Positions 1 through 53,569 of a stretch of 64,000 nt of DNA are shown in pieces. Made by a program: the position numbers and the translations under genes. A model generated the notes under the pieces. That model was not told the DNA's origin and made no database searches. It worked only from the letters and a program-made list of their open reading frames with translations. The DNA is from Roseomonas sp. (GTDB lineage: Bacteria > Pseudomonadota > Alphaproteobacteria > Acetobacterales > Acetobacteraceae): assembly GCA_020249435.1 (NCBI GenBank), contig JADCFQ010000020.1, forward strand, positions 20,522-84,521, written 5' to 3'. How positions within the stretch are numbered: position 1 is the stretch's first letter; the number at the start of each line of letters is the position of its first letter.

Positions 1-49
1 CCAGCCTGTGGCAAGATGGCGGGCGAACCTAGGAACAGGAGTCCCCGCC

Positions 50-466
50 ATGCCCCCCGTGCCCGATATCAGCCCCAAGGATACCTGGGATGCCTTGGCC
101 GCCGATCAGGACGCCGTGCTGATTGATGTGCGCACCGATGCGGAATGGAACTTTGTTGGCCTGCCGGACCTGATGGCACTTGGCAAGCAAGTCGTGCTGA
201 TTCCCTGGCAAATGTATCCCTCCATGCAGGTGAATGGCGGCTTTGCCGAGGATTTGCAGGCGGCGGGGCTGACGCCTGGGCAGAAGCTTTATTTCATCTG
301 CCGGTCGGGGGCGCGGTCTCAATCCGCGGGGCAGGCCGCGCAGGCGGCGGGCTTTGCCCACGCCTTCAATGTGGCGGATGGGTTTGAAGGCCCGGTGGAT
401 GGCGCAGGGCATCGCGGCAGTGCTGCCGGGTGGAAGGCATCCGGCTTGCCCTGGCGGCAGCGCTGA
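50..466 (+). CDS. Rhodanese-like domain sulfurtransferase
   Basis: LIDVRT..EW motif and active-site loop FICRSGARS; AGGAG upstream of ATG 50 (track starts at GTG 8). Confidence 0.85.
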   Translation: MPPVPDISPKDTWDALAADQDAVLIDVRTDAEWNFVGLPDLMALGKQVVLIPWQMYPSMQVNGGFAEDLQAAGLTPGQKLYFICRSGARSQSAGQAAQAAGFAHAFNVADGFEGPVDGAGHRGSAAGWKASGLPWRQR

Positions 467-481
467 ACCACGGCGTATCAG

Positions 482-1393
482 CTAAAAGGCAAAGAGGCTC
501 AGTATATCCTCAAGGCTGGCCGTGCCGGTCAGGATCACATCATCCCCCGCGCCGCCGAAAACGGTGTCATCGCCCCCCCAGACGGTGATGGTGTCATGCC
601 CATCACCACCCCAAGCCAGGTCGCGATCATCCCAGGCGTCAATCACATCATCGCCGACACCGCCTGCCAGCGTGTCATCACCATCGCCACCAATGAGCGT
701 ATCCGCACCATCGCCACCCGAGACACTGTCATTCCCGCGGTCGCTCAGCAGCCAATCATCGCCGGCATCGCCCGCGAGCACATCATCACCATCCTCGCTG
801 GTGACACTGTCATTGCCCGAGCCGCCAAAAATACGGTTGTGGCCAACCCCGCCCAAAAGACTATCGGCGCCATCACCGCCATCCAGCCAATCCTGCCCCT
901 CGGCGCCGAGCAGGGTTTCCGCAGCGGCGCCCGATGATAAGGTGTCATCGCCCGCGCCACCATCAGCGGCGCCGAGCATAACGCCAAGCCGCCCGTCAAA
1001 CAGGTCATCCCCGTCCGCTAGCAGCACCGCGCCTTCGATCAAACCGGCATTATGGACCTGATCCGCATAGGCGCTGCCGGTGATGGCGTAACGCCCATCC
1101 GTGGCATGGCCGCCTTCGGCAAGTGTCAGGAAAAGGCGATTGGTGATGGTGCCCTGGTTGTAAAGTTCAAAGCGCCATTCGGCTGAAATCGCGATATCAG
1201 CGGCGCTGACCACGCCCTGCTGCCACAGGATGCTCGGCGCAATTTCAGGCAGAGCTTGCGCGCCAAATTGCTGCATAGGGGCTTGGGGAGCGGCGAAATG
1301 AATGGCTCTGCCGTAATCCCAATCGCTTTCGAATAGCCCTGAAAGCGAATTGGTCTGTCCGGGGGCGAGAAGCAGCCGCGCGAAATTGATCAT
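482..1393 (-). CDS. RTX/hemolysin-type Ca2+-binding repeat protein
   Basis: Many GGxGxDxL nonapeptides (GGAGDDTL, GGDGADSL, GGSGNDSV, GGDGDDTL) in the C-terminal half; no signal peptide. Confidence 0.85.
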   Translation of the reverse strand: MINFARLLLAPGQTNSLSGLFESDWDYGRAIHFAAPQAPMQQFGAQALPEIAPSILWQQGVVSAADIAISAEWRFELYNQGTITNRLFLTLAEGGHATDGRYAITGSAYADQVHNAGLIEGAVLLADGDDLFDGRLGVMLGAADGGAGDDTLSSGAAAETLLGAEGQDWLDGGDGADSLLGGVGHNRIFGGSGNDSVTSEDGDDVLAGDAGDDWLLSDRGNDSVSGGDGADTLIGGDGDDTLAGGVGDDVIDAWDDRDLAWGGDGHDTITVWGGDDTVFGGAGDDVILTGTASLEDILSLFAF

Positions 1394-1693
1394 GGAACAC
1401 CCGCATGGCGGCCGGCCTGTCCCGAACCGGGGCGGCAGCCTTCACTGGGTGGGACCAGGATTGTCACGAATGGCTCCTTGAGCGTGTTATTCAGATGTCA
1501 TTAACATTCTTTGAAAAGAGATAAAAAACAAGCCTAAAATTCAATGCATCATTAAATATTTGGTCGGCCATAAACCTGAAGTTGAAAGTATTTTCTCCAT
1601 CTCGACTGTGGCGGTTTTCGATGCCTGCTGCGCTGCCCCTCCCTGGCAAAGCGCAGGCCGCCGAGGCATCATGTACCGGAAGGAGAAACGCCC

Positions 1694-2161
1694 ATGACCC
1701 CATTGCCCCTGCAATCCGAATATATGTTCCGCATGACGCTTGGCGTCGGCACCCCGCAAATGATCGGTGCGACTCGCAATGGCGAACTCCGCATCGTGCC
1801 GGTGACGGGTGGCACGGTTGTGGGGCCGAAGCTCACTGGCGAAATCATGCCGGGATCGGCGGCGGATTGGCTGCGCGTGGACCCCGATGGCTCGGCGCAG
1901 ATTGATGTGCGGCTGACCATTCGCGCTGCCTCCGGCAGCATGGTCTATGCCGCCTATAATGGCATTCGCCATGGCTCACCGGCAGCGCTGGCGAGGCTCG
2001 CGGCGGGTGAAACCCTTGACCCTTCCGAGATCTATTTTCGCACGCTGATCCGCTTTGAAACCGGCGCGGCTGATCTGGCTTGGATGAACAAGATCGTGGC
2101 TGTCGGTGTGGGCCAGCGCCCGCCAAGCGGGCCATGTTATGATGTCTACGCGGTGAAATAG
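1694..2161 (+). CDS. DUF3237-family protein
   Basis: 155 aa with LRIVPVTGG-x-V-x-GPKL-x-GEI-x-PG-x-AADW and YFRT-x-x-RFETG motifs; AGGAGA RBS. Confidence 0.75.
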   Translation: MTPLPLQSEYMFRMTLGVGTPQMIGATRNGELRIVPVTGGTVVGPKLTGEIMPGSAADWLRVDPDGSAQIDVRLTIRAASGSMVYAAYNGIRHGSPAALARLAAGETLDPSEIYFRTLIRFETGAADLAWMNKIVAVGVGQRPPSGPCYDVYAVK

Positions 2162-2172
2162 GCGGCGCCCCG

Positions 2173-2847
2173 TCAGCGCCGCGCGGCCAATTGCTTATTT
2201 TCAAGCCGGCTGAGCAAGCGCACCACGGGCCAAAGCAGAATAAAGTAAATGATCGCCGCCGCAACAATCGGCGATGCGTTATAGGTGACACTTTGCGCCT
2301 GCCGCGCCTGGAACAGCAATTCGGGCAGCGCTACGACTGATGCGATGGAGGTAAGCTTCACCACCTCCAGCGTATTGGAAATGAGATCAGGCAGCACATT
2401 GCGCACGGCCTGGGGCAACACAATGAAGCGCATGGTCTGCGCCGAAGTCAGCCCCGTGCTGCGTGCGGCTTCCACCTGGCCGCGGGGGACGCTTTCAATG
2501 CCGGCGCGCAGAATCTCGCCGTAATAGGCGCCAGTGTTCAGGAAAAACCCAATCGCCACCGCGCTCCAGGCGCTGATCTCGAGGCCCAGAAACGGCAGGC
2601 CGGCGAAGATAAAAATCAGCAGCACCAAAGGCGGCAAGGCGCGAAATGTATCCACCCAAACCCGGAGCGGCCAGCGCACCCAGGCATGGGGCAGGGTGGA
2701 CAGCACCGCCAGAATAATCCCCCCCAAAAGCCCGAGCGGCACCACCAGCAGCGACAGCAACAATGTGGCACGCAGCCCCTGCCAAAGAATGGGGGAGGCC
2801 TCGCGCATGATCTCCCAATTCAGAAAGGCTTCAAGGAAATCCTGCAT
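2173..2847 (-). CDS. Polar amino acid ABC transporter permease
   Basis: EAA motif (GQVEAARSTGLT), FRALPPLV, hydrophobic helices; operon context. Confidence 0.9.
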   Translation of the reverse strand: MQDFLEAFLNWEIMREASPILWQGLRATLLLSLLVVPLGLLGGIILAVLSTLPHAWVRWPLRVWVDTFRALPPLVLLIFIFAGLPFLGLEISAWSAVAIGFFLNTGAYYGEILRAGIESVPRGQVEAARSTGLTSAQTMRFIVLPQAVRNVLPDLISNTLEVVKLTSIASVVALPELLFQARQAQSVTYNASPIVAAAIIYFILLWPVVRLLSRLENKQLAARR

Positions 2848-2849
2848 GC

Positions 2850-3530
2850 TCAGCGCTTCCAGGCAAAGCGCGTTTCAATCCAGCGGCCCAGCAGGACCAC
2901 GGGAAAGAACAGCACCAGATAGGCCAGCGCGCCGAGTGTCAGCGGCGATGGGTTGAAGGAATGGGAAAGCCCGGAACTCGCCGCGCCCAGAATATCCGGC
3001 ACCGCCACCACGGAAGCGAGCGCCGTGCCCTTGGTAATCGCAATGGTGCGGTTCGTCAGCGGCGGAATGGTGAGCCGTAGCGCCTGCGGCAGCACCACAT
3101 AGCCCAGCGCTTGCAGGAAATTGAGCCCCGTGGAGCGCGCCGCTTCCCATTGCCCCTTTGGCACGCTGGTAATGCCGGCCCAGAAAATCTCCTCCGAAAA
3201 CGCCATCAGCACCAAAGTCAGCGCAAGCCAGGCAGAGGCAAAGCCGGAAAGCTCCATCCCCATGCTGGGCAGGCCAAAGAATAGCAGCACGATGATGACG
3301 AGCGGCGGCAGAGCGCGGAACAAATCCACCAGAAAAATAATCAGCCAATTGAGCGGCCGTACCTGAAGCGCACGCAGCACCGCCAGCGCAAGCCCAGCGA
3401 TCAACCCGGCGGCGATGATGCAAAGGGCGAGTACAATCGTCAGCCCAAAGCCTTCAATGATCTTCGGCAGGTATTGCGCCATGACGCGCGCATTGAAGAA
3501 GCTGTCGGTAAAGCGTTCCCAGCCGGTCAT
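2850..3530 (-). CDS. Polar amino acid ABC transporter permease
   Basis: EAA motif (GQWEAARSTGLN); paralogue of the neighbouring permease. Confidence 0.9.
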   Translation of the reverse strand: MTGWERFTDSFFNARVMAQYLPKIIEGFGLTIVLALCIIAAGLIAGLALAVLRALQVRPLNWLIIFLVDLFRALPPLVIIVLLFFGLPSMGMELSGFASAWLALTLVLMAFSEEIFWAGITSVPKGQWEAARSTGLNFLQALGYVVLPQALRLTIPPLTNRTIAITKGTALASVVAVPDILGAASSGLSHSFNPSPLTLGALAYLVLFFPVVLLGRWIETRFAWKR

Positions 3531-3536
3531 GATGGC

Positions 3537-4283
3537 TCAGTGCCGCTCAACCTGGCTGATGAAGGCGCGGAGCCTCTCATGGCGCGGTGCGCTGAAAATT
3601 TCGGCCGGTGGGCCTTGTTCCAGAATCTCGCCATCGGCCATGAAGACCACGCGATCCGCGGCGGCGCGGGCGAAGCTCATTTCATGGCTGACCACCACCA
3701 TGGTCATGCCGTCTTCGCGCAATTCGCGCATCACCGCCAGAACGCCGCCGACCAATTCCGGGTCAAGCGCGCTGGTCGGTTCATCAAACAGCATGACGCG
3801 CGGTTCAAGCGCGATGGACCGCGCAATGGCAACGCGCTGCTGCTGACCGCCGGAAAGCTGATTGGGGTAATGATCCGCACGATCCGCCAGATGCACGCGA
3901 TCCAAAGCGCGCTGCGCCCGTGCTTCGGCTTCTGCCTTGTCCAGCCCCTGCACCTTGCGGAGTGCGAGCATGACATTCCCAAGCGCCGTCATATGCGGAT
4001 AGAGGTTGAAGGATTGGAACACCATGCCAATCCGCTGCCGCGCCTTGTTGATATCCGTGCGCGCATCCAACATGTCTATGCCATCAACGATGATGGAACC
4101 GCTTGATGGTTCCTCCAACCGGTTCAGGCAGCGCAGCAGGGTGGATTTGCCGGACCCGGATGGCCCGATCACGAAGACAAGCTGGCGTTCTTCCACCGTG
4201 AAATCCACGCCCCGCAACACATGCAGGGCGCCGAAATGCTTATGGATGGCGCGCGCTTCAATAATGGGGCGGGCGGGGGTCAT
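3537..4283 (-). CDS. Polar amino acid ABC transporter ATP-binding protein (GlnQ-like)
   Basis: Walker A GPSGSGKS, signature LSGGQQQR, Walker B MLFDEPT; start could be 4283 or 4298. Confidence 0.92.
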   Translation of the reverse strand: MTPARPIIEARAIHKHFGALHVLRGVDFTVEERQLVFVIGPSGSGKSTLLRCLNRLEEPSSGSIIVDGIDMLDARTDINKARQRIGMVFQSFNLYPHMTALGNVMLALRKVQGLDKAEAEARAQRALDRVHLADRADHYPNQLSGGQQQRVAIARSIALEPRVMLFDEPTSALDPELVGGVLAVMRELREDGMTMVVVSHEMSFARAAADRVVFMADGEILEQGPPAEIFSAPRHERLRAFISQVERH

Positions 4284-4311
4284 GCCCGCCGCGCCCATAC
4301 GTTAAACGGCA

Positions 4312-5148
4312 TCAGCAGCGCGGATTCTGCGGCGTCGGGTCATAGCCCGGTAGATCGGGCGGACCATAGCCCGGGAATTCCATCACCTCTGCCTGATCCG
4401 GGCCCGGACGATTGCCAAACCATTTTTCGGAAAGCGTCGCAATGGTGCCATCGCGCTTCATGCAGGTCAGCACATCTTCCACCTGGTTGCGCATGGCGGC
4501 GCTATCCTTGCGGAAGGGTGTACCCCAATGCATGCGCGTACCGGGGAGCACGAAATCCGCGATGTATTGCGGCGTGCGAGACGCTGAATACCGCACCACC
4601 GTATTGCCGGACAGGTTGGCATAGGCGCGACCCTGGATCACCGCCTGCACCGCATCGGGCTGCGTATCAAAGGCAAGCAGGGTCAGGTTCAGGCGCTGCG
4701 CATTGGCCGTAACCCAGTTTTCATAGGGCGTGCCCTTGTTCACGCTGATGGTCTTGCCGCGCAGATCTTCCTCGGACTTGATCGGCGGCGTGCCGCGGCG
4801 GATGCCGAACTGCAATTCGGTCCAGATATAGCCTTCGGTGAACAGCAGCGCTTCGGCACGCGCCGGCGTGACCGTGGTCGGTGCGCAAAGGAAGTCGTAG
4901 CGCCCCGCATTCATGGCCGGAATAAGGCCGGAGAAGGACGCGCTTTCGATCACAATCTCCCGCCCCATCCGCTTCGCGACTTCGCGGAACAGGTCAATCT
5001 GGAACCCCTGCACGCCCCCCTGGAGCGAGGGGAAGGCATGGGGGGCGAAAGTGCCATCAACGCCGCAGCGGAGCGGCGGTTGCCCCTGGGCCAGGGCAGG
5101 GCCGGCAAGGGCAGCGGAAAGCAAGGCAGCGGCCAGGAAACGGCGCAT
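4312..5148 (-). CDS. Amino acid ABC transporter substrate-binding protein (SBP_bac_3 type)
   Basis: Signal peptide, GFQIDL, FSGLIPAM..GRYD; strong AAGGAGG RBS. Confidence 0.9.
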   Translation of the reverse strand: MRRFLAAALLSAALAGPALAQGQPPLRCGVDGTFAPHAFPSLQGGVQGFQIDLFREVAKRMGREIVIESASFSGLIPAMNAGRYDFLCAPTTVTPARAEALLFTEGYIWTELQFGIRRGTPPIKSEEDLRGKTISVNKGTPYENWVTANAQRLNLTLLAFDTQPDAVQAVIQGRAYANLSGNTVVRYSASRTPQYIADFVLPGTRMHWGTPFRKDSAAMRNQVEDVLTCMKRDGTIATLSEKWFGNRPGPDQAEVMEFPGYGPPDLPGYDPTPQNPRC

Positions 5149-5303
5149 GGGAACCTCCTTTTTTATGCATTCGGACTGGAGGACACTCTCAGATGTGGGG
5201 GCTTCTGTCCATGGCGGCTTGCCACGAAACTGCCTTGCTCTGGTCGCGCTGCTGCCCCGCTGGGCAGGTTTAAGAAAAGCCTGAACGATACGTGAGCAGG
5301 TAG

Positions 5304-5489
5304 ATGTTTGCCCTTGGATTGATTGGTGCTGGTGTGCTGTGTGATCTGGTGCTGGTAGCGCTTTTGCTGGGCGATGCCACGGCGCCAGCGCGTTTTTCGC
5401 ATGCTGCGGTGGCGCTGCTGGCGCTCTGCGGTGGTGGGTTGAAGCTTGGCGGCATGATGCTTTTGGAACCGCGCCGCCGGGCGGGGTGA
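5304..5489 (+). CDS. Small hypothetical membrane protein
   Basis: 61 aa with two hydrophobic stretches and a basic C-terminus; fills the gap between two minus-strand genes. Confidence 0.4.
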   Translation: MFALGLIGAGVLCDLVLVALLLGDATAPARFSHAAVALLALCGGGLKLGGMMLLEPRRRAG

Positions 5490-5503
5490 GGGGGTGCCCC
5501 GCG

Positions 5504-7642
5504 TCACAATTTGGCGAATTGATCCTTGAGGAACGCGTCCAAGGCCACGATCAGGCTTTTATCCGCGTAAAGCGCTTCCTTCCGCTGACCCAATTCTTCG
5601 CGCATGGCCTGGCGGCGTTCCGACTCCTGCCCCAGGGCAATAAGCTTCTGCACCATCTCATTCGTATCGCGCGCGATGGCGGATGGCATGCCCATCATTT
5701 GGAACATGGCATAGCTATGCCGCCCCCGCATGAAGGCGCCAGGGCAGGTAATGAGCGGCACGCCCGCTTCAGTGGCGCCGAGGGTGGTATTGCCGCCGCT
5801 CCAACCCAGTGAATCCACCAGCACATCCATCTGCCGCGTGAGGGCATCGAATTCTGCGCCATTCATGCGGGGCAGGAAAACCACATGCTCGGCGGCTGAA
5901 AGCCCCACCTTGGCGAAGGCGGCATCCAGGCGGGTGCGGGTAATGCCGGTCATATGCGGCGACATGCCTTCAATGAAGACGAACAGCGCCTTTGGCACCT
6001 CGGCCGCGATGCGCGGCAGAATGTCATCATAGCGCGGCAGGTATTTGAACAGCGATTGCAGGCAGCCATAAAGCACGCGCCCTTCGGGCAGCGGAAAATC
6101 CTTGGTCAGCGGCGCCGTGTTTCCAGGCTCCAAGTAAAGCGCCAGATTGGGCAGGCGGATTAGTTTCTCCGAATAATGCGAAGCGGCATCATCCGGTTCC
6201 ATCAGATCGCTCGATAAATAGAAATCCATCGCCGGCGAACCGCTGGTGACGGGGTGGCCCCAGGCGGTGAATTGAATGGGCGCGATGCGATGCAAGGAAA
6301 GAATGCGGCTTGAAGGTGTCATGCCGATATCGGGCAGCATGAGGAAATCCAGATCATCGGCACGCATGGCGGCGATGGTCTTGGCCAGGCTGCCCGCATC
6401 AAAGGAAAGCCGCCGATGTGTGCCCAATTCAGCAAAACCATCGGAAACATCATCATGTAGGCCGTGAAAGGCGTAAGAAAAGAACTGATAATCCGGCGGC
6501 AGATGCTTGAGCCAGGGCAGCGCCCAGCTTGATCCGTTATGGCGATAGAGATTTTCTGAAGCGATACCGAAACGGATGGGGCCTGGCTTGCGCGGTCCCT
6601 CTCGCGCTGGGCGATCAGGGATGGCCAGCATGTGCGTGAGGCAATCGGAAAGAAGCCGGTTCGGCTCAATATCGTTTTCCTGCTGATACGCGATGTAGAA
6701 GCCGTGTGAGCCATAAGCGACGGCCTTGAAGGCCGCCGATGCGGCGGCGCTCCGCGGGCAATCTTCAGCAAGCAGGTCATGAGCCCGGTGCAGTTCAGCG
6801 AGAAGTTCCCTACGCCTTTCACTGATTTCTGCCTCACTGTCATAAATGGCGGGTAGCAGATTTGCGGTATTCACTGCTGTACAGATTGCTTGGATGCGGT
6901 CTGCCTTTTTTTCTGTGGCAGTCATCAGTGTGATAGAACGCCTGAGTGCAATATCCGCTTCCTTCCTTCGGCCAAGCGCCCCCCAGGCTTGCCCCAGAAG
7001 CTTCTGCGGTTGTGGGTCATTCGGGCGGAGAGCAAGGGCGTTTTCGAAAGCTGTCAGTGCGTCCTCTGGCTTGCTCAATTCAAGCAAAATCTCGCCCTTG
7101 CGGAAATAAGCGGTGTGGTAATCGGGGCGTAACGCCAGGGCCTTGTCCAGGGCTTGCAGCGCAGCATGATATTCATGCCCGTCATAAAGTAAGGAAGCGT
7201 AATTGGCGTGGATCAGCGCATTGTCCGGTTGCAGCGCGATGGCGCGATGATAGCTTTCTCGTGCTTCCTTTGGGCGCTTTGCCTCTCGCAGCAAATTCGC
7301 GCGATTATGATGCGCGCTGGCGAAATCTGGCTTGGCCGCGATGGCTTTATCGAAACATTCCAGGGCTTCGTCGGTTTGCTCCAATTTTTGATACGCAATC
7401 CCGAGATTCGTCAGCACCGGTGCGTCATTGCCGCGCAGCGCCAAGGCGCGCCGGATCAGCTTGACCGCATCGCGATAGGCTTCCTGCTGCAAGGCCACCA
7501 CGCCACAAAGCTGCAGCGCGTTGAAGTTGCGCGGATCGCGCGCGATGATGCTTTCATATTTACGCCGCGCCTCCTTGAAATTGCCCTGCTGTTGCAAGGC
7601 AAGTGCGGCTTGCAGCATGGCAGCATGCGGGTCAGCCGCCAT
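5504..7642 (-). CDS. TPR-containing O-GlcNAc-transferase-like (GT41/SPINDLY family) protein
   Basis: About 7 N-terminal TPRs; C-terminal GT41-type motifs IQFTAWGHPVTSG, DFYLSSDLMEP, EKLIRLP, SGGNTT..GVPLIT. Confidence 0.8.
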   Translation of the reverse strand: MAADPHAAMLQAALALQQQGNFKEARRKYESIIARDPRNFNALQLCGVVALQQEAYRDAVKLIRRALALRGNDAPVLTNLGIAYQKLEQTDEALECFDKAIAAKPDFASAHHNRANLLREAKRPKEARESYHRAIALQPDNALIHANYASLLYDGHEYHAALQALDKALALRPDYHTAYFRKGEILLELSKPEDALTAFENALALRPNDPQPQKLLGQAWGALGRRKEADIALRRSITLMTATEKKADRIQAICTAVNTANLLPAIYDSEAEISERRRELLAELHRAHDLLAEDCPRSAAASAAFKAVAYGSHGFYIAYQQENDIEPNRLLSDCLTHMLAIPDRPAREGPRKPGPIRFGIASENLYRHNGSSWALPWLKHLPPDYQFFSYAFHGLHDDVSDGFAELGTHRRLSFDAGSLAKTIAAMRADDLDFLMLPDIGMTPSSRILSLHRIAPIQFTAWGHPVTSGSPAMDFYLSSDLMEPDDAASHYSEKLIRLPNLALYLEPGNTAPLTKDFPLPEGRVLYGCLQSLFKYLPRYDDILPRIAAEVPKALFVFIEGMSPHMTGITRTRLDAAFAKVGLSAAEHVVFLPRMNGAEFDALTRQMDVLVDSLGWSGGNTTLGATEAGVPLITCPGAFMRGRHSYAMFQMMGMPSAIARDTNEMVQKLIALGQESERRQAMREELGQRKEALYADKSLIVALDAFLKDQFAKL

Positions 7643-8341
7643 TCAACGCTCCACCCGCCTGTCATCCATGCCGCGAAACACGATCAACTCGCGCTTGGCA
7701 CGCTCCGCTTCGGGCAGCGCAAGCCAGGCCAAAAACTCCCCCATCACCCGCGCCGTGATGGTCGCGACATTATGGGCATGCGCCGCTTCCGGGCTGTACC
7801 AGCCAAGCTTTTCCAATTCGCCCGAACCTTTTATCTCCCCATGCACCGCTTCCGCCGGCGCCACCAAAAACCGCGCATGAAAGCGAATGGGCCGGCCCGT
7901 TGGCGTAATGGCGCGGCACAAATAATCCAAGGCGCCGAGCGCCGCCGCGACACCATCACCGCGCTTTTCGCCTAAAACGAGCCCGGTTTCCTCAAACAAT
8001 TCCCGCGCTGCTGCAATGCCAAGCGCGCGCGCCCGCGCTGGCGTCGCGCGCCGTTCCAGCAAGCGCCTGGGCTCCGCACGTAGCTCACTGATCGCAGGGC
8101 CGCGATGATCATCAGGATCAACGCGCCCACCGGGAAAGACCATCACATCAGGCATGAAGCGATGCCCGGCATGGCGCTTGCCCATCAGCAATTCTGGCCC
8201 TTTGCGGCTTTGGCGCCAGACAATCAGGCTGGAAGCATCGCGCGGGCGCGCGGTGCGGGCGCGCGGGCTCCGCTTGCCTTCAGCATCGGCACCACCGGGA
8301 TTATCGGCGGTCGGGTCTTCGCGACGCGGGCGGTCAGTCAA
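7643..8341 (-). CDS. NUDIX hydrolase
   Basis: FPGGRVD...AAARELFEETG Nudix box; probable TTG start at 8341 overlapping the nitroreductase stop (track extends to 8503). Confidence 0.85.
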   Translation of the reverse strand: MTDRPRREDPTADNPGGADAEGKRSPRARTARPRDASSLIVWRQSRKGPELLMGKRHAGHRFMPDVMVFPGGRVDPDDHRGPAISELRAEPRRLLERRATPARARALGIAAARELFEETGLVLGEKRGDGVAAALGALDYLCRAITPTGRPIRFHARFLVAPAEAVHGEIKGSGELEKLGWYSPEAAHAHNVATITARVMGEFLAWLALPEAERAKRELIVFRGMDDRRVER

Positions 8342-9146
8342 GGTCAAACCCCCGGCTCCGCAACCAGGCGCGGAAGCCAAAGCGCTCCGGCACCGATAAT
8401 TGACGCGCGGCGTTTTCGGACCAGGTGCAGCCTTCCGGCGCCGGCCCATGGATTTCCGGATAGCGCGGCTTTTGCCGAGGGCGCAGCGCATCATAAGCGT
8501 CAATGGCTTCCGCTTCCGCCGCGCTGGAATAGGCTTCGCGATGGATCACGACAGATGGCGGCAGGCGCTGCGTGATGTCATTGCGCGCTGCCGGCCAGCC
8601 GAGTGAAAGCCCCGCCACCGGATAAACCCCTTTCGGCAGCGCAAACAAAGGTGCCACTTTTTCGATATGGCTGCGCACATAGGAAATGGGGCAGGTGCCG
8701 AGCCCCGCTGCCTCAGCCGCCGCAATCGTGGCACCAAGCGCCAATGCCGCATCCACCGCCGTATTCAGGAAAGTGTCCATATTGTTGTTGGCGTGTTCGT
8801 GCCCATGGCGCGCGCAAGCGGCCTGGCCGCGCCGCATATCGCCGCAGAAAATCAGCAGCACCGGCGCATCCTTGATCCAGGGCATGGTGCCGATCCAATC
8901 GGCAACCTTGGCGATCTTTACCGGATCACGCGTCACGATGATCGAATATTGCTGCAAATCGGATTTGGAAGGTGCTGATTGCCCCGCCGCCAATACCGTA
9001 TCCAATAGCGCATCAGTCACTGCCTCAGCGGCATAGCGGCGCGTCACGCGCCGATCCAATAGCGCCGCAAGCGCGGGCGGAATCGCCTCGGGCGGGGTGA
9101 AGGGCAGGGCGCCGTAGCGGGCGCGGATCAGGTCTTCGGGCTTCAT
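8334..9146 (-). CDS. NfsA/Frp-like nitroreductase (flavin reductase)
   Basis: RRVTRRY, SAPSKSDLQQYSII, GLGTCPIS, RLP motifs; start MKPED at 9146. Confidence 0.85.
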   Translation of the reverse strand: MKPEDLIRARYGALPFTPPEAIPPALAALLDRRVTRRYAAEAVTDALLDTVLAAGQSAPSKSDLQQYSIIVTRDPVKIAKVADWIGTMPWIKDAPVLLIFCGDMRRGQAACARHGHEHANNNMDTFLNTAVDAALALGATIAAAEAAGLGTCPISYVRSHIEKVAPLFALPKGVYPVAGLSLGWPAARNDITQRLPPSVVIHREAYSSAAEAEAIDAYDALRPRQKPRYPEIHGPAPEGCTWSENAARQLSVPERFGFRAWLRSRGFDLD

Positions 9147-9171
9147 CACGCCAAACTGGCACCGCGCGGCA

Positions 9172-11229
9172 TCAAGGGGAAGCGGGCACCACCCAGGCAT
9201 CCGCCACCGTGACGCCCTGGCCTTCGGCAAGGATGATCAGCGGGTTGATTTCCGCCTCGGCCACGCCCGGATGGGCCGCGAGGCGCGATGCCGCCACCAC
9301 CGCGCGCGCCAGCGCATCCAAATCGCCGCGCGGCAGCCCGCGCCAGCCGGCGAGGGGTTTCAGCCCCTTCACCTCCGCGATCATGGCCCGCGCTTCTGCC
9401 TCATCCACCGGGGCGAGGCGAAGCGCCGTATCGCGGTGCAATTCCGCCATGATGCCGCCAGCGCCGACCAGGATGATGGGCCCTGCCTCCGGGTCTCGCC
9501 GGAAGCCGATGATCGCCTCAGCCAGGCCCTTCACCATGGGCTGCACCAAAAACCCAGTGATGCGCGCCGCCGGGGCGCGGGCCCTGACGCGTGTCAGCAT
9601 CGCAGAGGCCTCGGCCTCCAGCGCCACCGGATCGGGAATATTGAGCGCCACGCCAGCCACTTCTGTCTTATGCGCCAGATCGGGCGAGAGGATCTTGAGC
9701 GCCACAGGATAACGCAGCCCTGCGGGCACCGCATCGGGCGCGGCCATGACGGCAAAGGGGCTATCCAGGCCGAAAGCCGCGAAAAGCCGGCGCGCGTCAG
9801 CCTCATCAGGATGGGCCGGCGTGGTTTGGCTGATGGTGGGCGCTGCGGCCTCGGTGCGCGGCGCACGCCAATCGAAAAAGGCGCGGATCACATCGGCGCA
9901 GGATTCCGGCGTGCGGAAGGCAGGGATGCCGGCCTCTCCCAACAGCCGGAGCGACGCATCGGCCTGCGGCACCAGAAAGGCCGCGATGGGTTTGCCAAGC
10001 CCTGCCTTCACCGCGCCGGTAATTCCCGCCACCGCATCATGCGGGCGGAATTGCGCGGAAGACCCGACCACGGAAAGCACCATATCCGTGCCCGCATCGG
10101 CGGCGAGGGCTGAAAGCGCCGCCTCCACCTTATCGGCGCGCGTGCCCGCCAGCGTCACATCAATCATCCGCCCATGATGCGGCAGGCCAGCGGCTTCCAG
10201 CCCGGCCACGGCAGCGGCATCGGGCGGGCAGGTTTCAATGCCGACAACGCCCAAGGCATCCACCGCCATGGCACCACCACCACCCGTGGTGGTCATGACG
10301 GAAATGGTGCGTCGCGGATTGGCCAAGGGCTTCCGCCCAATGAACAAGGCAGGCGCTTCCAACAGCGCTTCAATCATCGTCACGCGCGCAATGCCATTGG
10401 CACGGAAGAAGGCATCCGCCGCCGCATCCGACCCCGCCAGCGCGCCCGTATGGCTGCCCGCCAGCTCCGCGCCGAAGCTTGAACGGCCAAGCTTGAAGGC
10501 AATGATCGGTTTGCCGAGTTCATGGGCGCGGCGCGCTGCGGCGGCGAGTTTTTCCGGCGCGCGAATCGCTTCCAGAAACAACAGCACCGCATCAACGCCC
10601 GGGTCTTCCACCAGCATGCCGGCGATTTCACTCGCGGTCAGATCGGCCTCATTGCCGGTGCCGATCAGATGCGAAAAGCCGATCCCGCGCGGTGCGCCGC
10701 GCGCCATGATGGCACCCATCATGGAACCGGATTGCGAAACGAGCGCGATGCGCCCGGCGGGCAGGCTATCGGCTTCCAGCGCCGCATTCACCGAACAGGC
10801 GGTGCGCGCGTTCAGATTGACCAGGCCCATGGAATTGGGGCCGAGCAGCCGCACCCCTGCCGCTTTCGCTGTCGCCAACAGTCTTTCCTGCAAGGCGCGG
10901 CCTTCCGGCCCGGCTTCGGCAAAACCATCAGCCAGAATGGCGGCGACAGGGATGCGCTTTTCGGCAACCGCTGCGATCTGCCCTTCCACATGCTGCGTAC
11001 CCAGCAGCAGATAAGCGAGATCAATCTCCCCCGGCACATCGGCCAGGCGCGGATAGGCGCGTTCGCCAAGGATGGTCTCTGCGCTTGGATTGATTGGGAA
11101 AAGCTCACCAGTAAAGCCATGCTTGCGCAGATAGACCTGCGCGCGCGCGGTCAGGCGCTTCGGGTCCGATGATCCGCCAATCAGCGCAATGCGGCGCGGG
11201 TTGAGCAGGGCAGAGGCAAGGCGATCCAT
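9172..11229 (-). CDS. ADP-forming acyl-CoA synthetase (acetate--CoA ligase family)
   Basis: CoA-binding N-terminus, LLGPNSMG, SQSG, phospho-His motif SHTGALAG, C-terminal ATP-grasp (PVALKI..HKTEVAGV, EINPL). Confidence 0.9.
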   Translation of the reverse strand: MDRLASALLNPRRIALIGGSSDPKRLTARAQVYLRKHGFTGELFPINPSAETILGERAYPRLADVPGEIDLAYLLLGTQHVEGQIAAVAEKRIPVAAILADGFAEAGPEGRALQERLLATAKAAGVRLLGPNSMGLVNLNARTACSVNAALEADSLPAGRIALVSQSGSMMGAIMARGAPRGIGFSHLIGTGNEADLTASEIAGMLVEDPGVDAVLLFLEAIRAPEKLAAAARRAHELGKPIIAFKLGRSSFGAELAGSHTGALAGSDAAADAFFRANGIARVTMIEALLEAPALFIGRKPLANPRRTISVMTTTGGGGAMAVDALGVVGIETCPPDAAAVAGLEAAGLPHHGRMIDVTLAGTRADKVEAALSALAADAGTDMVLSVVGSSAQFRPHDAVAGITGAVKAGLGKPIAAFLVPQADASLRLLGEAGIPAFRTPESCADVIRAFFDWRAPRTEAAAPTISQTTPAHPDEADARRLFAAFGLDSPFAVMAAPDAVPAGLRYPVALKILSPDLAHKTEVAGVALNIPDPVALEAEASAMLTRVRARAPAARITGFLVQPMVKGLAEAIIGFRRDPEAGPIILVGAGGIMAELHRDTALRLAPVDEAEARAMIAEVKGLKPLAGWRGLPRGDLDALARAVVAASRLAAHPGVAEAEINPLIILAEGQGVTVADAWVVPASP

Positions 11230-49585: not shown

Positions 49586-49661
49586 GCCCAGATAGCTCAG
49601 TTGGTAGAGCATGCGACTGAAAATCGCAGTGTCGCTGGTTCGATTCCGGCTCTGGGCACCA
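49586..49661 (+). tRNA. tRNA-Phe (GAA)
   Basis: 76 nt cloverleaf: acceptor GCCCAGA/TCTGGGC, D-arm TAGCTCAGTTGGTAGAGC, anticodon loop CTGAAAA, T-loop TTCGATT, encoded CCA. Confidence 0.98.
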
Positions 49662-49665
49662 TTTC
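49644..49665 (+). repeat. att core, tRNA side (TTCCGGCTCTGGGCACCATTTC)
   Basis: Identical to 53548-53569; spans the end of the T-loop to just past CCA. Confidence 0.93.
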
Positions 49666-49715
49666 AATGCCCTAGCGCGTTGAAATCAAACGATTTCCAA
49701 AATCTCAGGGCGATT

Positions 49716-49736
49716 TCCCCCACACCCTCCCCCACA
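49716..49736 (+). promoter_or_regulatory. Putative integrase arm-type sites (TCCCCCACA x2)
   Basis: Direct repeats at 49716 and 49728 (12-bp period); the same pair occurs at 53397/53409. Confidence 0.65.
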
Positions 49737-49921
49737 CTTGGCGCCCGGTAGGGGTGGGGAAGGCTCCCCCGCGCGCGTGTTTTGTAGGCCGGGAAATTGC
49801 GCCTCAGTCACCCGCGCGCGCGTGTTTTCCGGCCTTCCCGCGCCCCGCGCGCGCGTAGGTTGCCTGCCATGGGCGCCGGTTCCGCCTCCGCGCGCGAGGT
49901 TTCGTGGGGCGGTGGGGCGCT

Positions 49922-50821
49922 TCAATGCTTCGGGCAGGGCAAGCCAAGCCATGCGGCGGCCTCGGCTACCACCGGCCTTACATCGGCCTCGAAGGCATCC
50001 CACAAGGCGTGATGTTCGGGCGGGCTTTCGTCCCCGGTTTCCGGCAAGGCTTCGCGCCTCAGGGCCAGCGCGTCTAGTCGCGTGAATAGGCGCAGCGCTT
50101 CGGCCTCGCCACCGGCAAGGCGCCGTTGCAGGGCTTCCGATAAGCGCCAGGCGGCGTGATGTTCATCCGTCTTTCGGAGTTCCATACCACGGGCGCACCA
50201 CTCCCACTTATCGCGCAAGCCCGGCTTTATGCCGATGCTGCGCCACGTTATCAGGCGATGAACCCGCGCCACCGCTTCGGGCGAGACTGACAAGCCCGCG
50301 CTCCGGGCGGCCTCGGCTATCTTGGCGGCTTCGCGCTTCCCCTCTTCCAGGGCGAAGCGATATCCGGCCAAGTCTGAGCGATAGGCGTAAAGCTGCGCCA
50401 TGCGCTTTTTGCTTTCCGCTTCGCACCATTCCAAAAGCTGCGCCAGCGGTGGGAGCGTTTTCAGGGTTCGGCGCGCGCGTTGCGCCACCGCCCGCACAAT
50501 ATCGGCGCTGTATTCGGCCAAATCTTCGCCAGCGGCGGCGGCATAGGCTTCGGCGGTTATGCGCGCGTTCGGGAAAACCCCTACCAAGTGCCGCGCCACG
50601 TTTTCGGCGTAGTGTTGCCGGGCCTCGGCTTCATCCGGGTTTTCTTGCGCGGCGCGCCATGCCTCAAGCTGCGCCAGCGTGTTTTTCGCCACCTGCAGAA
50701 TATCCGGGTCTTCCAATTCATCCGGGGAAAGGCGCTCAGGCTTGCCGGTTTCTTCATCGCCCCAAAAATCCGGCGTCTTCGGAAATGTGGGAAGGGCTGG
50801 CGCGGTTTGTTTCTTCGTCAT
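49922..50821 (-). CDS. Hypothetical protein with a phage replicative-helicase-loader/inhibitor-like central region
   Basis: Segment VFPNA..AYAAAAGEDLAEYSADIVRAVAQRARRTLKTLPPLAQLLEWC; immediately downstream of the initiator-like gene; AGGGGG RBS before ATG 50821. Confidence 0.55.
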   Translation of the reverse strand: MTKKQTAPALPTFPKTPDFWGDEETGKPERLSPDELEDPDILQVAKNTLAQLEAWRAAQENPDEAEARQHYAENVARHLVGVFPNARITAEAYAAAAGEDLAEYSADIVRAVAQRARRTLKTLPPLAQLLEWCEAESKKRMAQLYAYRSDLAGYRFALEEGKREAAKIAEAARSAGLSVSPEAVARVHRLITWRSIGIKPGLRDKWEWCARGMELRKTDEHHAAWRLSEALQRRLAGGEAEALRLFTRLDALALRREALPETGDESPPEHHALWDAFEADVRPVVAEAAAWLGLPCPKH

Positions 50822-50831
50822 TTCGCGCCCC

Positions 50832-51356
50832 CTATATCCGGCTCGGGATGGAAGGCTTGCGCTTGCGCTTACTGCCAGCGCCAGCGCGCGGCGCGTCAGC
50901 AAAGCGCGCGTTAGCGCTGGTATACGGTTTCCCTACATTTTCATTACGGGATACCTGTTCGGGGGGTTGTAGAGCGCCCATTAAGGGCGCTCTGTGGCGC
51001 CCATCTAGGGGGCTGTAGGGCGCCCATGTGGGGCGCTCTGTGGCGCCCATTGCATCGATGTGCCCCGATACTTGCCCCGATAGCTCCGGCGCTGCGAGGG
51101 CGTATCCTTTCGCCCTTGATCGCGAAGGCGCGGGCGCAATGAAGCCCCGTTCTTCCAGGCCGCGAAGCGCGCGGCGGATTGTGCGGCGCTCCATCCGGAG
51201 CATTTCGGAGAGGCCCCGGCTTGAAGGCCAGGCCGCACCGCGCGCCTCGTTAAAATGTTCGGCAATCGCCACCGCCACCGCCAATTCGGCAAGCGTGGGG
51301 CGAGGATCAGCGGCGGCAACGGCGCGAAGCCATGCAAACCTTGTCGCAATCGACAT
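50832..51356 (-). CDS. HTH (HTH_36-like) phage replication-initiator-like protein
   Basis: AWPSSRGLSEMLRMERRTIRRALRGLEERGFI winged-HTH followed by a low-complexity region carrying DNA repeats. Confidence 0.7.
   Translation of the reverse strand: MSIATRFAWLRAVAAADPRPTLAELAVAVAIAEHFNEARGAAWPSSRGLSEMLRMERRTIRRALRGLEERGFIAPAPSRSRAKGYALAAPELSGQVSGHIDAMGATERPTWAPYSPLDGRHRAPLMGALQPPEQVSRNENVGKPYTSANARFADAPRAGAGSKRKRKPSIPSRI
50959..51050. repeat. Four 23-bp iteron-like repeats (putative origin)
   Basis: GCGCCCAT core at 50974, 50997, 51020, 51043; unit GGG(C/G)G(C/T)-N6-GCGCCC-AT. Confidence 0.8.
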
Positions 51357-51472
51357 AGGCGGCAATCCTTTGGGAAGGCCCCTTGCCAGCCGTGCCGCGA
51401 ATTGCTACTTTTCTTTGTGACGCAAAGACTTTTCGCAATTCTAGCCGCGCCTTGGCAACAGGGCGCGGTTCT

Positions 51473-51550
51473 CTATTGGGCGAAGCGCAGCAAGCCCGCG
51501 AGGGCCAGTAATGCGAGGGGCGCGGCAATCCATGCAATGCGGGCCATCAT
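51473..51550 (-). CDS. 25-aa hydrophobic micro-protein (MMARIAWIAAPLALLALAGLLRFAQ)
   Basis: ATG overlaps the Xis-like stop (ATGA); single TM-like helix. Confidence 0.45.
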   Translation of the reverse strand: MMARIAWIAAPLALLALAGLLRFAQ

Positions 51551-51750
51551 GGCGCCACCTTGAGGAATTGGCGTAGCGAATCGCCCGCGACCATCATGCG
51601 GCCACCGCAACGAAAAAGGCGCAAGGCGCCCTCTTTTCCTCGGCGGCGAAGGGTGGAAGGCGACAAGCCGGAAATCCGGCAAGCTTGCCTGAGGGTGAAG
51701 GAAAGGGCGCCCGGATGGGGCGCGGGCGCATCAGCGCGCAATCGTGGCAT
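51547..51750 (-). CDS. Excisionase/AlpA-like HTH DNA-binding protein
   Basis: FTLRQACRISGLSPSTLRRRGKEGAL...GGRMMV..DSLRQFL; GAGG before ATG 51750 (track GTG 51786). Confidence 0.75.
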   Translation of the reverse strand: MPRLRADAPAPHPGALSFTLRQACRISGLSPSTLRRRGKEGALRLFRCGGRMMVAGDSLRQFLKVAP

Positions 51751-51893
51751 GGGGTGCCTCGCGAGAAAGGGTTTGGGATGTCTCACGCTTTCGGTGCGCG
51801 GAACCTTTTCTCGCGTGTAGCGCCACGCGGCGGCGGGTCTATCTCACATGTAAGGCCATGCGGCGGCCAGGCGCCATGTGCGCTTGGCGTATT

Positions 51894-51921
51894 ATTATCA
51901 CTACGCGCCAACGCTGCGCAA
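51894..51921 (-). promoter_or_regulatory. Possible sigma70 promoter for the xis-rep operon
   Basis: Minus-strand TTGCGC-N16-GATAAT in the AT-richer int/xis spacer. Confidence 0.35.
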
Positions 51922-52010
51922 GTGTTTTCGTGCGTCTATTTCGTATTTCTCATTTAACGCGCCGTAAAGTTTCCAATACGCGGTTTTCGTTTCTCACCGG
52001 CTCTTAACAA

Positions 52011-53363
52011 TCACCGCACGGCGTTTCGCGCTTCGCCAATGTTCACCACCGGCGCGGCGGGCGTGACGCAATGGCGGCCCCATTGTTCCATCAGCCCTAC
52101 GCGGCGCTCGAATAAATCACTCCGGCGATACCGCCCGGCTACCTTGCTTGCGTCTTCATGCGCCAGCGCCTTTTCGGCGGCGTCCCGTTCCCCAGGGTGG
52201 CAATCATCGCACCATGTCCGGAAGCTTGCGCGCCAGCCGTGCGGCACCACCGGGCGCCCGGTGGGATCAACCCATTGCGGGCCATCCTTGCCTTCATTCA
52301 TGCGCCGGATCACGGCAGAAAGCGCCATATCCGTAAAGGGGCCGGTTCGGGATATGTTCGGGAATATCCAGCTATCGCCCGCAATCCGGGCCAGCTTGGG
52401 CAATTCGCCCGGCGCCACCGTCACGCCATGCGCCAGCCCATAGGCGCGGCATAAGGTTTCCAGCATGGCGGAAGATAGCGGGACGCGGTGGGGCGCGGGT
52501 TCGGAAAGGTTGCGGCCTTTCATCACCAAGCCCGGCACGGTTAGAACGGCTTGGCCCCCATCGAAGCTAATCCAATTCCAGCGCAGCGCGCGCGCTTCAC
52601 CGGATCGAAGGGCGCTTAGGGCGGCGAAGCGCAGCGCCACCGGGGCTAGGCCGGGCATCTTGTCCAAGGCTTCGAAAAATCCGGGCGCTTGGCGCCATGG
52701 CAGGGCAGGATGGCCTCGCTCCCCGGCTTGTTGCGTCAAGCCAAGGTGGCGCAAAATCCGAACATCGGCGGCGGTGGCATCGGCGCCCCATCCTTGCGCG
52801 GCGGCATAGCGCAAAACGGCGCCAATTCTGCGAAGCGTTTTGCGGGCGATAATCGGCTTTTTATGCCAGATCGGTTCTAGCGCATCCTTCACCATTTCCC
52901 GCGTGATGCTCGCCACCGGCTGTTTCATCAGCGGCGCGGCATGTAGTTTCAGGCTCGATTCCCACATATGCGCCGTGCGGGCGTTCTTCCATGAAGGCGC
53001 CTCGGCCTTAATCACCGCCTCGGCTACATTGGCGAAGACGCGGCGCTCGGCCTCTTCCTCGGCCTTGCGGGCGGTTTCCAGGGCCTTTGCAGCGGCACGG
53101 CGGGCCTTCACCGGATCAGCACCGCCAAGGGCTTCACGGCGGGCGGCAAGGGCCTTTATGCGGGCTTGGGCAAGTGTCACGGCAGGCCAGGGGCCAAGCC
53201 CCATGTCCCGGCGCTTTCCGGCAACCATAACGCGGGCCAGCCATACCTTTGCGCCGCTCGGCACGATTTCTAGCAAAAGCCCGCCCCCATCGCTCAGGCG
53301 GTATTTCCCGGCGCGGGGCTTGGCGGCTTCAACCGTCTTTGCGTCTAACTTTCCGTTCGGCAT
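52011..53363 (-). CDS. int: P4-type tyrosine integrase with arm-binding (DUF4102-like) N-domain
   Basis: N-terminal LSDGGGLLL...MGLGPWPAVTLAQAR; catalytic R (LRSGE), K (MK), HGWR, LAH, Y (GRY) all present. Confidence 0.95.
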   Translation of the reverse strand: MPNGKLDAKTVEAAKPRAGKYRLSDGGGLLLEIVPSGAKVWLARVMVAGKRRDMGLGPWPAVTLAQARIKALAARREALGGADPVKARRAAAKALETARKAEEEAERRVFANVAEAVIKAEAPSWKNARTAHMWESSLKLHAAPLMKQPVASITREMVKDALEPIWHKKPIIARKTLRRIGAVLRYAAAQGWGADATAADVRILRHLGLTQQAGERGHPALPWRQAPGFFEALDKMPGLAPVALRFAALSALRSGEARALRWNWISFDGGQAVLTVPGLVMKGRNLSEPAPHRVPLSSAMLETLCRAYGLAHGVTVAPGELPKLARIAGDSWIFPNISRTGPFTDMALSAVIRRMNEGKDGPQWVDPTGRPVVPHGWRASFRTWCDDCHPGERDAAEKALAHEDASKVAGRYRRSDLFERRVGLMEQWGRHCVTPAAPVVNIGEARNAVR

Positions 53364-53396
53364 GGCGCGGCCTCATAGGGTGGAACCATCAATTCT

Positions 53397-53417
53397 TCCC
53401 CCACAATATCCCCCACA
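53397..53417 (+). promoter_or_regulatory. Putative integrase arm-type sites (TCCCCCACA x2)
   Basis: Direct repeats at 53397 and 53409, upstream of int; match the left-arm pair. Confidence 0.65.
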
Positions 53418-53547
53418 ATCGGCCCTTGCAATGCCAAAACGGTTCTAAGCGTGTCAAAATGTGTTTTTCTTTGTGTTTCTAAGGAAAAACTGCGAATTTT
53501 CAGGCTGATTTCAGGGCGGTTTGAAACGGCTTGAAAGGGCAAAATGG

Positions 53548-53569
53548 TTCCGGCTCTGGGCACCATTTC
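53548..53569 (+). repeat. att core, distal side (duplicated tRNA-Phe 3' end)
   Basis: TTCCGGCTCTGGGCACCATTTC, identical to 49644-49665. Confidence 0.93.

Follow-up and report, generated by a model that had tools for sequence, protein, structure and literature searches.

A phased array of dyad repeats inside a winged-helix gene of a small tRNA-Phe island of Roseomonas: a candidate in-gene replication origin

What are four phased, dyad-symmetric repeats doing inside the coding sequence of a small winged-helix protein? The question is raised by a 64,000-nucleotide stretch of Roseomonas sp. DNA (the window, by which we mean the whole stretch analysed), where a gene of the HTH_36 family, at 50832..51356 on the minus strand, carries four 23-bp units at 50959..51050, then a local dip in GC content, and is followed directly by the gene of an orphan protein that we call X. 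The initial annotation likened this arrangement to the origin located in gene O of phage lambda. We think, with moderate confidence and on the basis of sequence comparison, that the array and the hairpin next to it are the replication origin of an excised genomic island, laid out in the manner of lambda ori, bound by the island's own winged-helix protein and assisted by X as an adaptor.

The existence of the array is the most certain point. Inspection of the plus strand gives four abutting units from 50959 to 51050, which in gene-strand order are u1 (51028-51050), u2 (51005-51027), u3 (50982-51004) and u4 (50959-50981); the unit sequences on the gene (minus) strand are ATGGGCGCCACAGAGCGCCCCAC, ATGGGCGCCCTACAGCCCCCTAG, ATGGGCGCCACAGAGCGCCCTTA and ATGGGCGCTCTACAACCCCCCGA, and together they occupy codons 106-136 of the HTH_36 gene. 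Tandem Repeats Finder reports the array both with a period of 23 (3.4 copies, 76% matches) and with a period of 46 (1.9 copies, 88% matches), so that the exact 23-bp period and, for this window, the A-B-A-B alternation of the units were correctly recognized in the initial annotation. At period 23 the array matches itself at 49 of 69 bases, the top score of the real window for periods 10-60, whereas 200 first-order Markov simulations of the window gave at most 39 at period 23 and at most 43 at any of these periods. A chance origin is thus ruled out, since no simulation reached the observed self-match. A coding repeat is ruled out as well: the period is not divisible by 3 and identical DNA is read in three frames, and the apparent conservation of GA, AP and GR residues in the protein alignment arises because the motif GGCGCC is read in different frames.

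Some details of the earlier description need qualifying. The dyad GGGCGC-N6-GCGCCC had been attributed to every unit; symmetry is indeed visible in all four, but the arms are perfect in only two, one of the other units having one mismatch and the last having two. This motif is by itself common in such GC-rich DNA, and it is the phased cluster that is rare: a position weight matrix built from the units gives them 29-34 bits, and finds nothing else that exceeds 12 bits on the two strands of the window. The pair of TGCCCCGATA copies flanking the array is present where it had been placed (51061..51070 and 51073..51082, plus strand), forming a 12-bp in-frame repeat that encodes SGQV/SGHI. There are three copies in the related locus L001 and none in L007 or in more distant loci, i.e. 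the repeat is confined to the nearest relatives, and it is probably a slippage or linker duplication in a disordered linker, and not a conserved site. Both this pair and the A-B-A-B alternation are lineage-specific and not general features of the array family. As a separate observation, GGGCGCCCGGATGGGGCGC at 51704-51723, inside the HTH_17 open reading frame of the same island, resembles the junction of two iteron units (85% to 51017-51036); on the minus strand it is predicted as a terminator-like stem too, and the matrix scan does not score it as a full unit.

What is general becomes apparent when related loci are compared. We read 15 lineages (the window, L001-L005, L007, L010, L011, L013, L019-L021, L023 and L026), together with L024, a sibling of L023. 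Exactly four 23-bp units in the same register occur in 15 of these 16 loci, and the proteins of the 15 array-bearing lineages are 47-92% identical. The sixteenth locus, L024, has one unit; it differs from L023, which comes from another sample, by 69 bp, in frame, between two identical units, and its one-unit form reflects either genuine recombination or a collapsed assembly. The end of the array is also recognizable across lineages, ...CCCCGA being followed by ACAGGTA (ACAAGTA in L013, ACATGCA in L026) and then by a stem-loop. The half-sites themselves differ, being GGGCGC/GCGCCC in the window, L001 and L007, GGGGG/CCCCC in L011 and in two units each of L002 and L019, ATGGCGC/GCGCCAT in L003, L010, L013, L021 and L023, and GGCGGG/CCCGCC in L004. 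In an alignment of 13 sequences (312 cells), the six dyad pairs of each unit are complementary in 86% of the cells, whereas sliding the partner by 1-3 columns leaves 43-60%, and there are 25 two-sided changes; none of 500 shuffles reaches the observed values. The half-site type follows the protein subgroups in the recognition helix and the wing, a correspondence that is confounded by shared descent and that fits recognition by the HTH_36 protein itself.

The layout claimed in the initial annotation is therefore not only confirmed but reinforced, as register, period and downstream hairpin recur across the 15 lineages. It can even be followed into a remote branch, L032 (1761-1960), made of int, HTH_17, a gene for a 186-aa protein and an X that is about 25% identical. 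There, the 3' half of the gene upstream of X carries 24-bp units of unrelated sequence, TGGCCC..GGGCCA, and a low-GC inverted repeat, GGGTCTC/GAGACCC, stands after the units in the same position as the hairpin. Since L032 keeps this layout at an hhalign value of 47%, the architecture predates the similarity in sequence of the DNA-binding proteins.

The hairpin itself, at 50926..50955 on the minus strand, reads GGTATCCC-GTA-AT-GAAA-AT-GTA-GGGAAACC on the gene strand. The initial annotation had spoken here of an AT-richer patch; the dip is real (the 36-mer at 50920 has 42% GC against 62%, which puts it in the lowest 1.4% of the window's 36-mers), but it corresponds to a conserved stem-loop rather than to a plain AT tract. 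Its shape is common to all the loci that were folded. In an ungapped 28-nt alignment of 14 lineages, the pairs are complementary in 85% of the cells; sliding the register lowers this to 41-54% in five of six cases and to 4.8% in the remaining one. Two-sided changes are seen at six of the nine pairs; again, none of 500 shuffles reaches the observed values. We regard this stem-loop as a candidate unwinding or priming element. In a DNA alignment of 13 loci it is followed by a conserved GC-rich block (50876..50918, minus strand; GCTAACGCGCGCT..GCTGACGC..CGCGCGCTGGCGC), and this tail shows no codon-position signature.

The same lack of a coding signature extends over the whole 3' half of the gene. 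The part coding for the folded winged-helix domain (residues 1-92, 51081..51356, minus strand; pLDDT 83-93 in the AlphaFold2 model) has pairwise divergences of 0.30/0.25/0.58 at codon positions 1, 2 and 3, a normal coding signature, whereas the values are 0.34/0.36/0.38 in the iterons, 0.15/0.25/0.27 in the hairpin and 0.38/0.38/0.39 in the tail. Only the N-terminal 92 residues evolve as a protein does; residues 95-177 are predicted to be disordered, and this disorder, combined with the absence of a codon-position signature, indicates that the constraint in the 3' half acts on DNA and not on protein. The frame nevertheless stays open in every lineage, up to a stop codon that either overlaps the Shine-Dalgarno sequence of X or lies right against it (e.g. 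TAGGAGG; here, too, the TAG overlaps it), from which it would follow that the array remains translated for the sake of coupling to X. This is a clean and unusual case of a coding stretch with a sequence set by DNA function instead of protein.

Is the protein encoded by this gene an initiator? The open reading frame (177 aa, 50832-51365, minus strand), which does enclose the array as had been noted, is open to a TTG at 51365, and the likely start is the ATG at 51356, giving 174 aa; the homologues have 164-186 aa. The protein matches Pfam HTH_36 (PF13730) with 30.4 bits, above the 25-bit family cut-off, and the same domain is precomputed on 16 of 17 homologues. Its N-terminal domain, and this domain only, matches PHROG families that bear the label "replication initiation protein" or the label "replication initiation O-like" (E values of 2.9e-7 to about 7e-3, the "O-like" ones lying between 3.6e-5 and 3.8e-4), and hhalign aligns the family profile at 96.7% probability, with 35% identity over 66 columns, to a "replication initiation protein" of phage C72C1 (OQ984150.1, PHROG 270); in a tblastn search of GenBank phages there was one weak match for the HTH_36 protein and none for X. 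The proposal of the initial annotation that the helix-turn-helix protein is the initiator is thus favoured by its domain, by these PHROG families and by the annotated phage initiator, but not by membership in the lambda O family, to which it does not belong because defining features of that family were looked for and are absent, nor by its fold, which is a generic one. It is not an initiator of the Rep3/RepA type (tandem WH1-WH2) either, having a single winged helix and no Rep3 match.

The second component is gene X (49922..50821, minus strand), which codes for a 299-aa, all-alpha orphan protein with one beta-hairpin pair (pLDDT 89.7 in the AlphaFold2 model) and always lies directly downstream of the HTH_36 gene, except in L026. 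X has no Pfam, PHROG or NCBIfam match, its family (75 clusters among 1.8 billion protein representatives) has no Pfam match in 63 members, PF06992 included, and hhalign finds no similarity of X to lambda O or to the C-terminal part of the C72C1 protein. The best-conserved motif of X, RARRT-LKTLPPLAQLLEW, can be aligned with residues 81-114 of lambda P (RVARRQNRPFLPSPGQFVAWC), in a profile-profile match of 33 columns with an hhalign probability of only 36% (E 3.8e-4); a comparison with viral folds gives weak matches to replisome organiser, G39P and P proteins, none of them significant. Several members of the family end in a Tudor domain of the PcrA/UvrD type. In L026 (1483-2334; genome G172, contig 370) there is no X gene, the four units and the hairpin are retained, and the HTH_36 reading frame continues through a proline-rich linker into such a Tudor domain, to give a protein of 283 aa. 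The finding of the same domain fused to X in some members and to the HTH_36 protein in L026 indicates that the two proteins are functionally linked. PcrA/UvrD-type Tudor domains bind RNA polymerase in those helicases, and the fusions point to a partner common to X and the HTH_36 protein, possibly RNA polymerase. We consider X a candidate for a new helicase-loader or RNA-polymerase adaptor.

The context of the module is that of an integrative element. The island spans 49644-53569 (3.9 kb) and has four genes, all on the minus strand. Its target is a tRNA-Phe gene (GAA anticodon; 49586..49661, plus strand; detected by ARAGORN, Rfam tRNA 71.7 bits), the last 18 bases of which, plus 4 more, form the attL core (49644..49665, plus strand), a 22-bp repeat that is 100% identical to the attR core at 53548..53569 (plus strand). 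In a genome of the same genus (G005) the two flanks are only 25 bp apart, which is the empty site and demonstrates that the island is a discrete insertion. The integrase (52011..53363, minus strand; 450 aa) is a tyrosine recombinase of the P4 type with Arm-DNA-bind_3, Phage_int_M and Phage_integrase domains (PHROG 1); with these domains, the repeats at the tRNA 3' end and the empty site, we are dealing with a tRNA-targeting integrative element. Two copies of TCCCCCACA, 12 bp apart, lie in the left arm (49716..49736, plus strand) and two more, with the same spacing, in the right arm (53397..53417, plus strand), so that four of the five copies in the window stand at the two ends of the island, where 0.32 would be expected by chance; these pairs are probable arm-type integrase sites. 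The remaining gene (51547..51786, minus strand; 79 aa) codes for an HTH_17 or AlpA-like protein (Pfam HTH_17 E 5.3e-5, under the cut-off; PHROG 66 excisionase E 0.008), a probable excisionase or regulator.

Comparable islands are found at tRNA-Phe, tRNA-Thr and tRNA-Glu genes, in records of Acetobacteraceae-type Alphaproteobacteria (Asaia, Dankookia, Falsiroseomonas, Belnapia). An integrase gene lies upstream of the HTH_36 homologue and the X homologue directly downstream (with the exception already mentioned), with variable small genes in between; HTH_17 genes hold the equivalent position in relatives. The module is present in only 2 of 301 genomes of the family, and in a single copy in its own genome. 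Compared with phage satellites (PICI or capsid-forming PICI), the island has int, an AlpA-like gene and a candidate replicon; no packaging gene is found among its four genes. Two stretches near the island's ends can be mentioned in passing. Between attL and the end of gene X (49761-49856) there are three CCCGCGCGCGCGTGTTTT-like elements, each consisting of a self-complementary CGCGCGCG and, after it on the plus strand, a run of T, which may be terminators against read-through from tRNA-Phe. The island's 36-mer of lowest GC content (25%) is at 53454-53489, between the integrase start and attR and beside the arm-type sites; it is likely to be the promoter of int or else a bending region of the IHF type in attP.

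The module also occurs in a different setting. L024 (IMG/VR UViG_3300049135_000109, 1-10745) has a 127-bp terminal repeat, which makes it a 10.6-kb circle, and encodes TerL (split across the ends), HNH, capsid, prohead protease and portal proteins, the HTH_36-X module and an initiator of the Rep3 type; no integrase was found among the open reading frames scanned, and no small terminase was identified. In L023, three GTGAGTGATTGGGGG iterons (6333-6402) lie downstream of the X match (5389-6213), where L024 has the intergenic region between X and Rep3. The pair has the appearance of an alphaproteobacterial mini phage-plasmid or capsid-forming satellite, and, as L024 carries it, the module travels with small phage-like or satellite-like genomes.

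If the array is indeed an origin, it could work as follows. The integrase and the AlpA-like protein would excise the island as a circle, and dimers of the winged-helix protein would bind the four dyads, as lambda O dimers do on the iterons of gene O. The resulting nucleoprotein complex would stress, then open, the adjoining low-GC hairpin region. X, made from the same transcript by translational coupling, would act as an adaptor, standing for the C-terminal half of O plus P, and recruit the host helicase and replisome; in the Tudor-bearing variants, RNA polymerase would be brought in instead. The frame through the origin would be kept open for ribosomes to reach X, the peptide itself being unimportant.

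Several observations weigh against this interpretation and should be given their place. The winged helix is generic, its best solved matches, by sequence and by fold, being the regulators MarR, GntR, PerR and CodY and the centromere binder TubR; there is no Phage_rep_O (PF04492) match at E <= 0.1, and hhalign of the HTH_36 family profile against lambda O gives a probability of 0.06%. The "replication initiation" labels of the PHROG families and of the C72C1 protein are computational annotations, and tblastn of the HTH_36 protein and X against the plasmids of PLSDB gives no match. Sequence and fold searches of the PDB yield no solved structure that matches X, whose link with lambda P is weak. 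The low-GC patch measures only about 30-36 bp and is a structured 30-nt hairpin. L024 holds only one iteron unit, and in L023 and L024 X is followed directly by a canonical initiator of the Rep3 type, which has iterons of its own, so that the module is not the sole candidate replicon there. Lastly, a Tudor domain of the type that binds RNA polymerase, fused to X or to the HTH_36 protein, would suit a transcription factor too.

This last remark leads to the rival that survives best, which we consider unlikely but worth keeping, mainly because L023 and L024 carry their own Rep3 replicon: the array would be a set of operators, the winged-helix protein a transcription factor, and the dyads would control the expression of X or the state of the island, RNA polymerase being perhaps recruited or blocked, without any replication. 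The solved relatives just listed are mostly regulators of this kind, the dyads lie 110-230 bp upstream of the start of X, and the Tudor fusions, on X as on the HTH_36 protein of L026, are in keeping with it. Against this, unit-like sites are absent from the promoters and intergenic regions of both the island and the window, a sigma-70 promoter scan of the island gave no site, and none between the array and X, and X is arranged for translational coupling, its Shine-Dalgarno sequence containing the TAG, and not for a promoter of its own. Four phased dyads and a covarying hairpin in a coding region would also be an unusual form of operator, and the nearest phage homologue, annotated as a replication initiator, has a like array followed by an AT-rich tract. 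If the array should nonetheless be an operator, the protein would be an ordinary regulator with an odd placement of its sites.

A more daring variant of the origin hypothesis takes the Tudor link at face value, and we give it a rather low probability. The module would then be a primase-free, transcript-assisted minimal replicon, in which the winged-helix protein on its dyads holds or stalls RNA polymerase through the Tudor link; the primer or the entry for the helicase may come from the transcript or from the displaced strand of the hairpin, which would resemble initiation of the pAMbeta1 or ColE1 type. X may in that case be a new kind of loader, with one motif in common with lambda P, and origin function may fully dictate the 3' half of the gene, the peptide being a by-product kept in frame for coupling.

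One could also imagine that the dyads and the hairpin act in the messenger RNA, as stem-loops governing stability, processing or the flow of ribosomes into X. The two-sided changes that keep their pairing are what such elements would show, the loop of the hairpin is rich in G and A on the sense strand, where the GTA/GTA flanks could form sheared G·A pairs, and the region is transcribed and translated, judging from a frame that is kept open and coupled to X. We find this improbable, as each locus uses one lineage-specific half-site in all its units, which is expected for the sites of a single protein and not needed by independent hairpins; moreover, departures from symmetry are mostly mismatches of the C·C type in the middle of the 6-bp stems, G·U pairs being rare (6 of 312 cells), no Rfam family reaches its threshold in a search at E <= 1 (RsmW scores 26 bits over the array against a gathering score of 52), and translating ribosomes would melt such stems. 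The weakest proposal, a docking platform of another kind (pac-like for packaging, centromere-like for partition, or helper-sensing) with the winged-helix protein as adaptor, can appeal to the established layouts of pac sites inside small-terminase genes and of centromeres made of phased repeats, to the presence of TubR among the fold matches, and to the 10.6-kb circle, in which the module is accompanied by genes for capsid, portal, protease, HNH and TerL proteins while no small terminase was identified, but it is made very improbable by an HTH_36 protein without oligomerisation or TerL-binding domain (its C-terminal half being predicted disordered and unconstrained), an X without NTPase fold, an island of 3.9 kb without packaging or partition genes, and PHROG matches that are replication initiators and not terminases.

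What would be gained if the array is an origin? The island, with four genes in 3.9 kb, would be among the smallest elements described that integrate, excise and replicate, and its two-gene core, i.e. a winged-helix protein with an in-gene origin and X, would be an uncharacterised replicon. This HTH_36-X core is common to tRNA islands of Acetobacteraceae and to a small circle with capsid genes. The principle known from lambda, with the origin inside the initiator gene, would extend to an unrelated DNA-binding domain, and a 1.5-kb fragment could serve as a compact replicon for GC-rich Alphaproteobacteria.

It remains to compare the module with known systems, beginning with the one to which it was first likened. 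The lambda record has four 18-bp iterons, spaced by 20, 24 and 23 bp, in codons 117-145 of O. Lambda ori and the island thus have in common four dyad iterons at about 20-24 bp spacing inside the (here putative) initiator gene, directly after the part coding for the DNA-binding domain, then a lower-GC region and a palindrome, and a second gene immediately next. They differ in the N-terminal domain, which is HTH_36 here and Phage_rep_O in lambda, without detectable similarity to O; in the rest of the chain, which in O includes a C-terminal loader-binding domain and here ends in a predicted disordered tail, with X as a separate gene; in the low-GC element, a 40-bp AT tract in lambda and a 30-nt covarying hairpin here; and in the nature of the genome, a phage on one side and a 3.9-kb island on the other. 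The likeness to lambda ori therefore holds for the layout, but not for the protein family; the low-GC element is a short local GC minimum with the structure of a hairpin, and one relative has a separate Rep3 replicon.

Among integrated elements, the PIMEs are int-alpA-rep-iteron islands with four iterons next to repA, which replicate after excision (bioRxiv 10.64898/2026.01.12.698999), and they share with our island the succession of int, an alpA-type regulator, rep and an iteron origin module. However, PIMEs and the other integrative elements of this class, SGI1, PICI/SaPI and PLE, measure 10-40 kb, use initiators of the RepA/Rep3 or primase-helicase type, have their origin outside coding sequence, and carry mobilisation or packaging genes, of which there is none among the four genes of the island. 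Among plasmids, HTH_36 Rep proteins drive the iteron plasmids pAES7, pMARC3 and pMOS2 of Paracoccus, with homologues in Acetobacter and Acidiphilium (PMC3832669); here the common points are the HTH_36 domain in the initiator, which is putative in the island, and the iteron-like repeats that accompany it.

The closest homologous analogue of the putative island initiator is, by sequence, the initiator of the C72C1 type. The phage protein and the HTH_36 protein have homologous N-terminal winged helices with a common NxxRGxAWP motif, and the phage gene has, right after the winged helix, about four dyad units (TGACAC..GTGTCA) with a 24-bp period, followed by three copies of the AT-rich TAACAATAA. 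The two differ in that the C72C1 protein is one chain of 275 aa with a C-terminal domain, whereas the chain of the island stops and is followed by the separate and unrelated X of 299 aa. With its in-gene iterons and its AT-rich tract after the winged helix, the phage gene thus has an architecture in common with that of the island.

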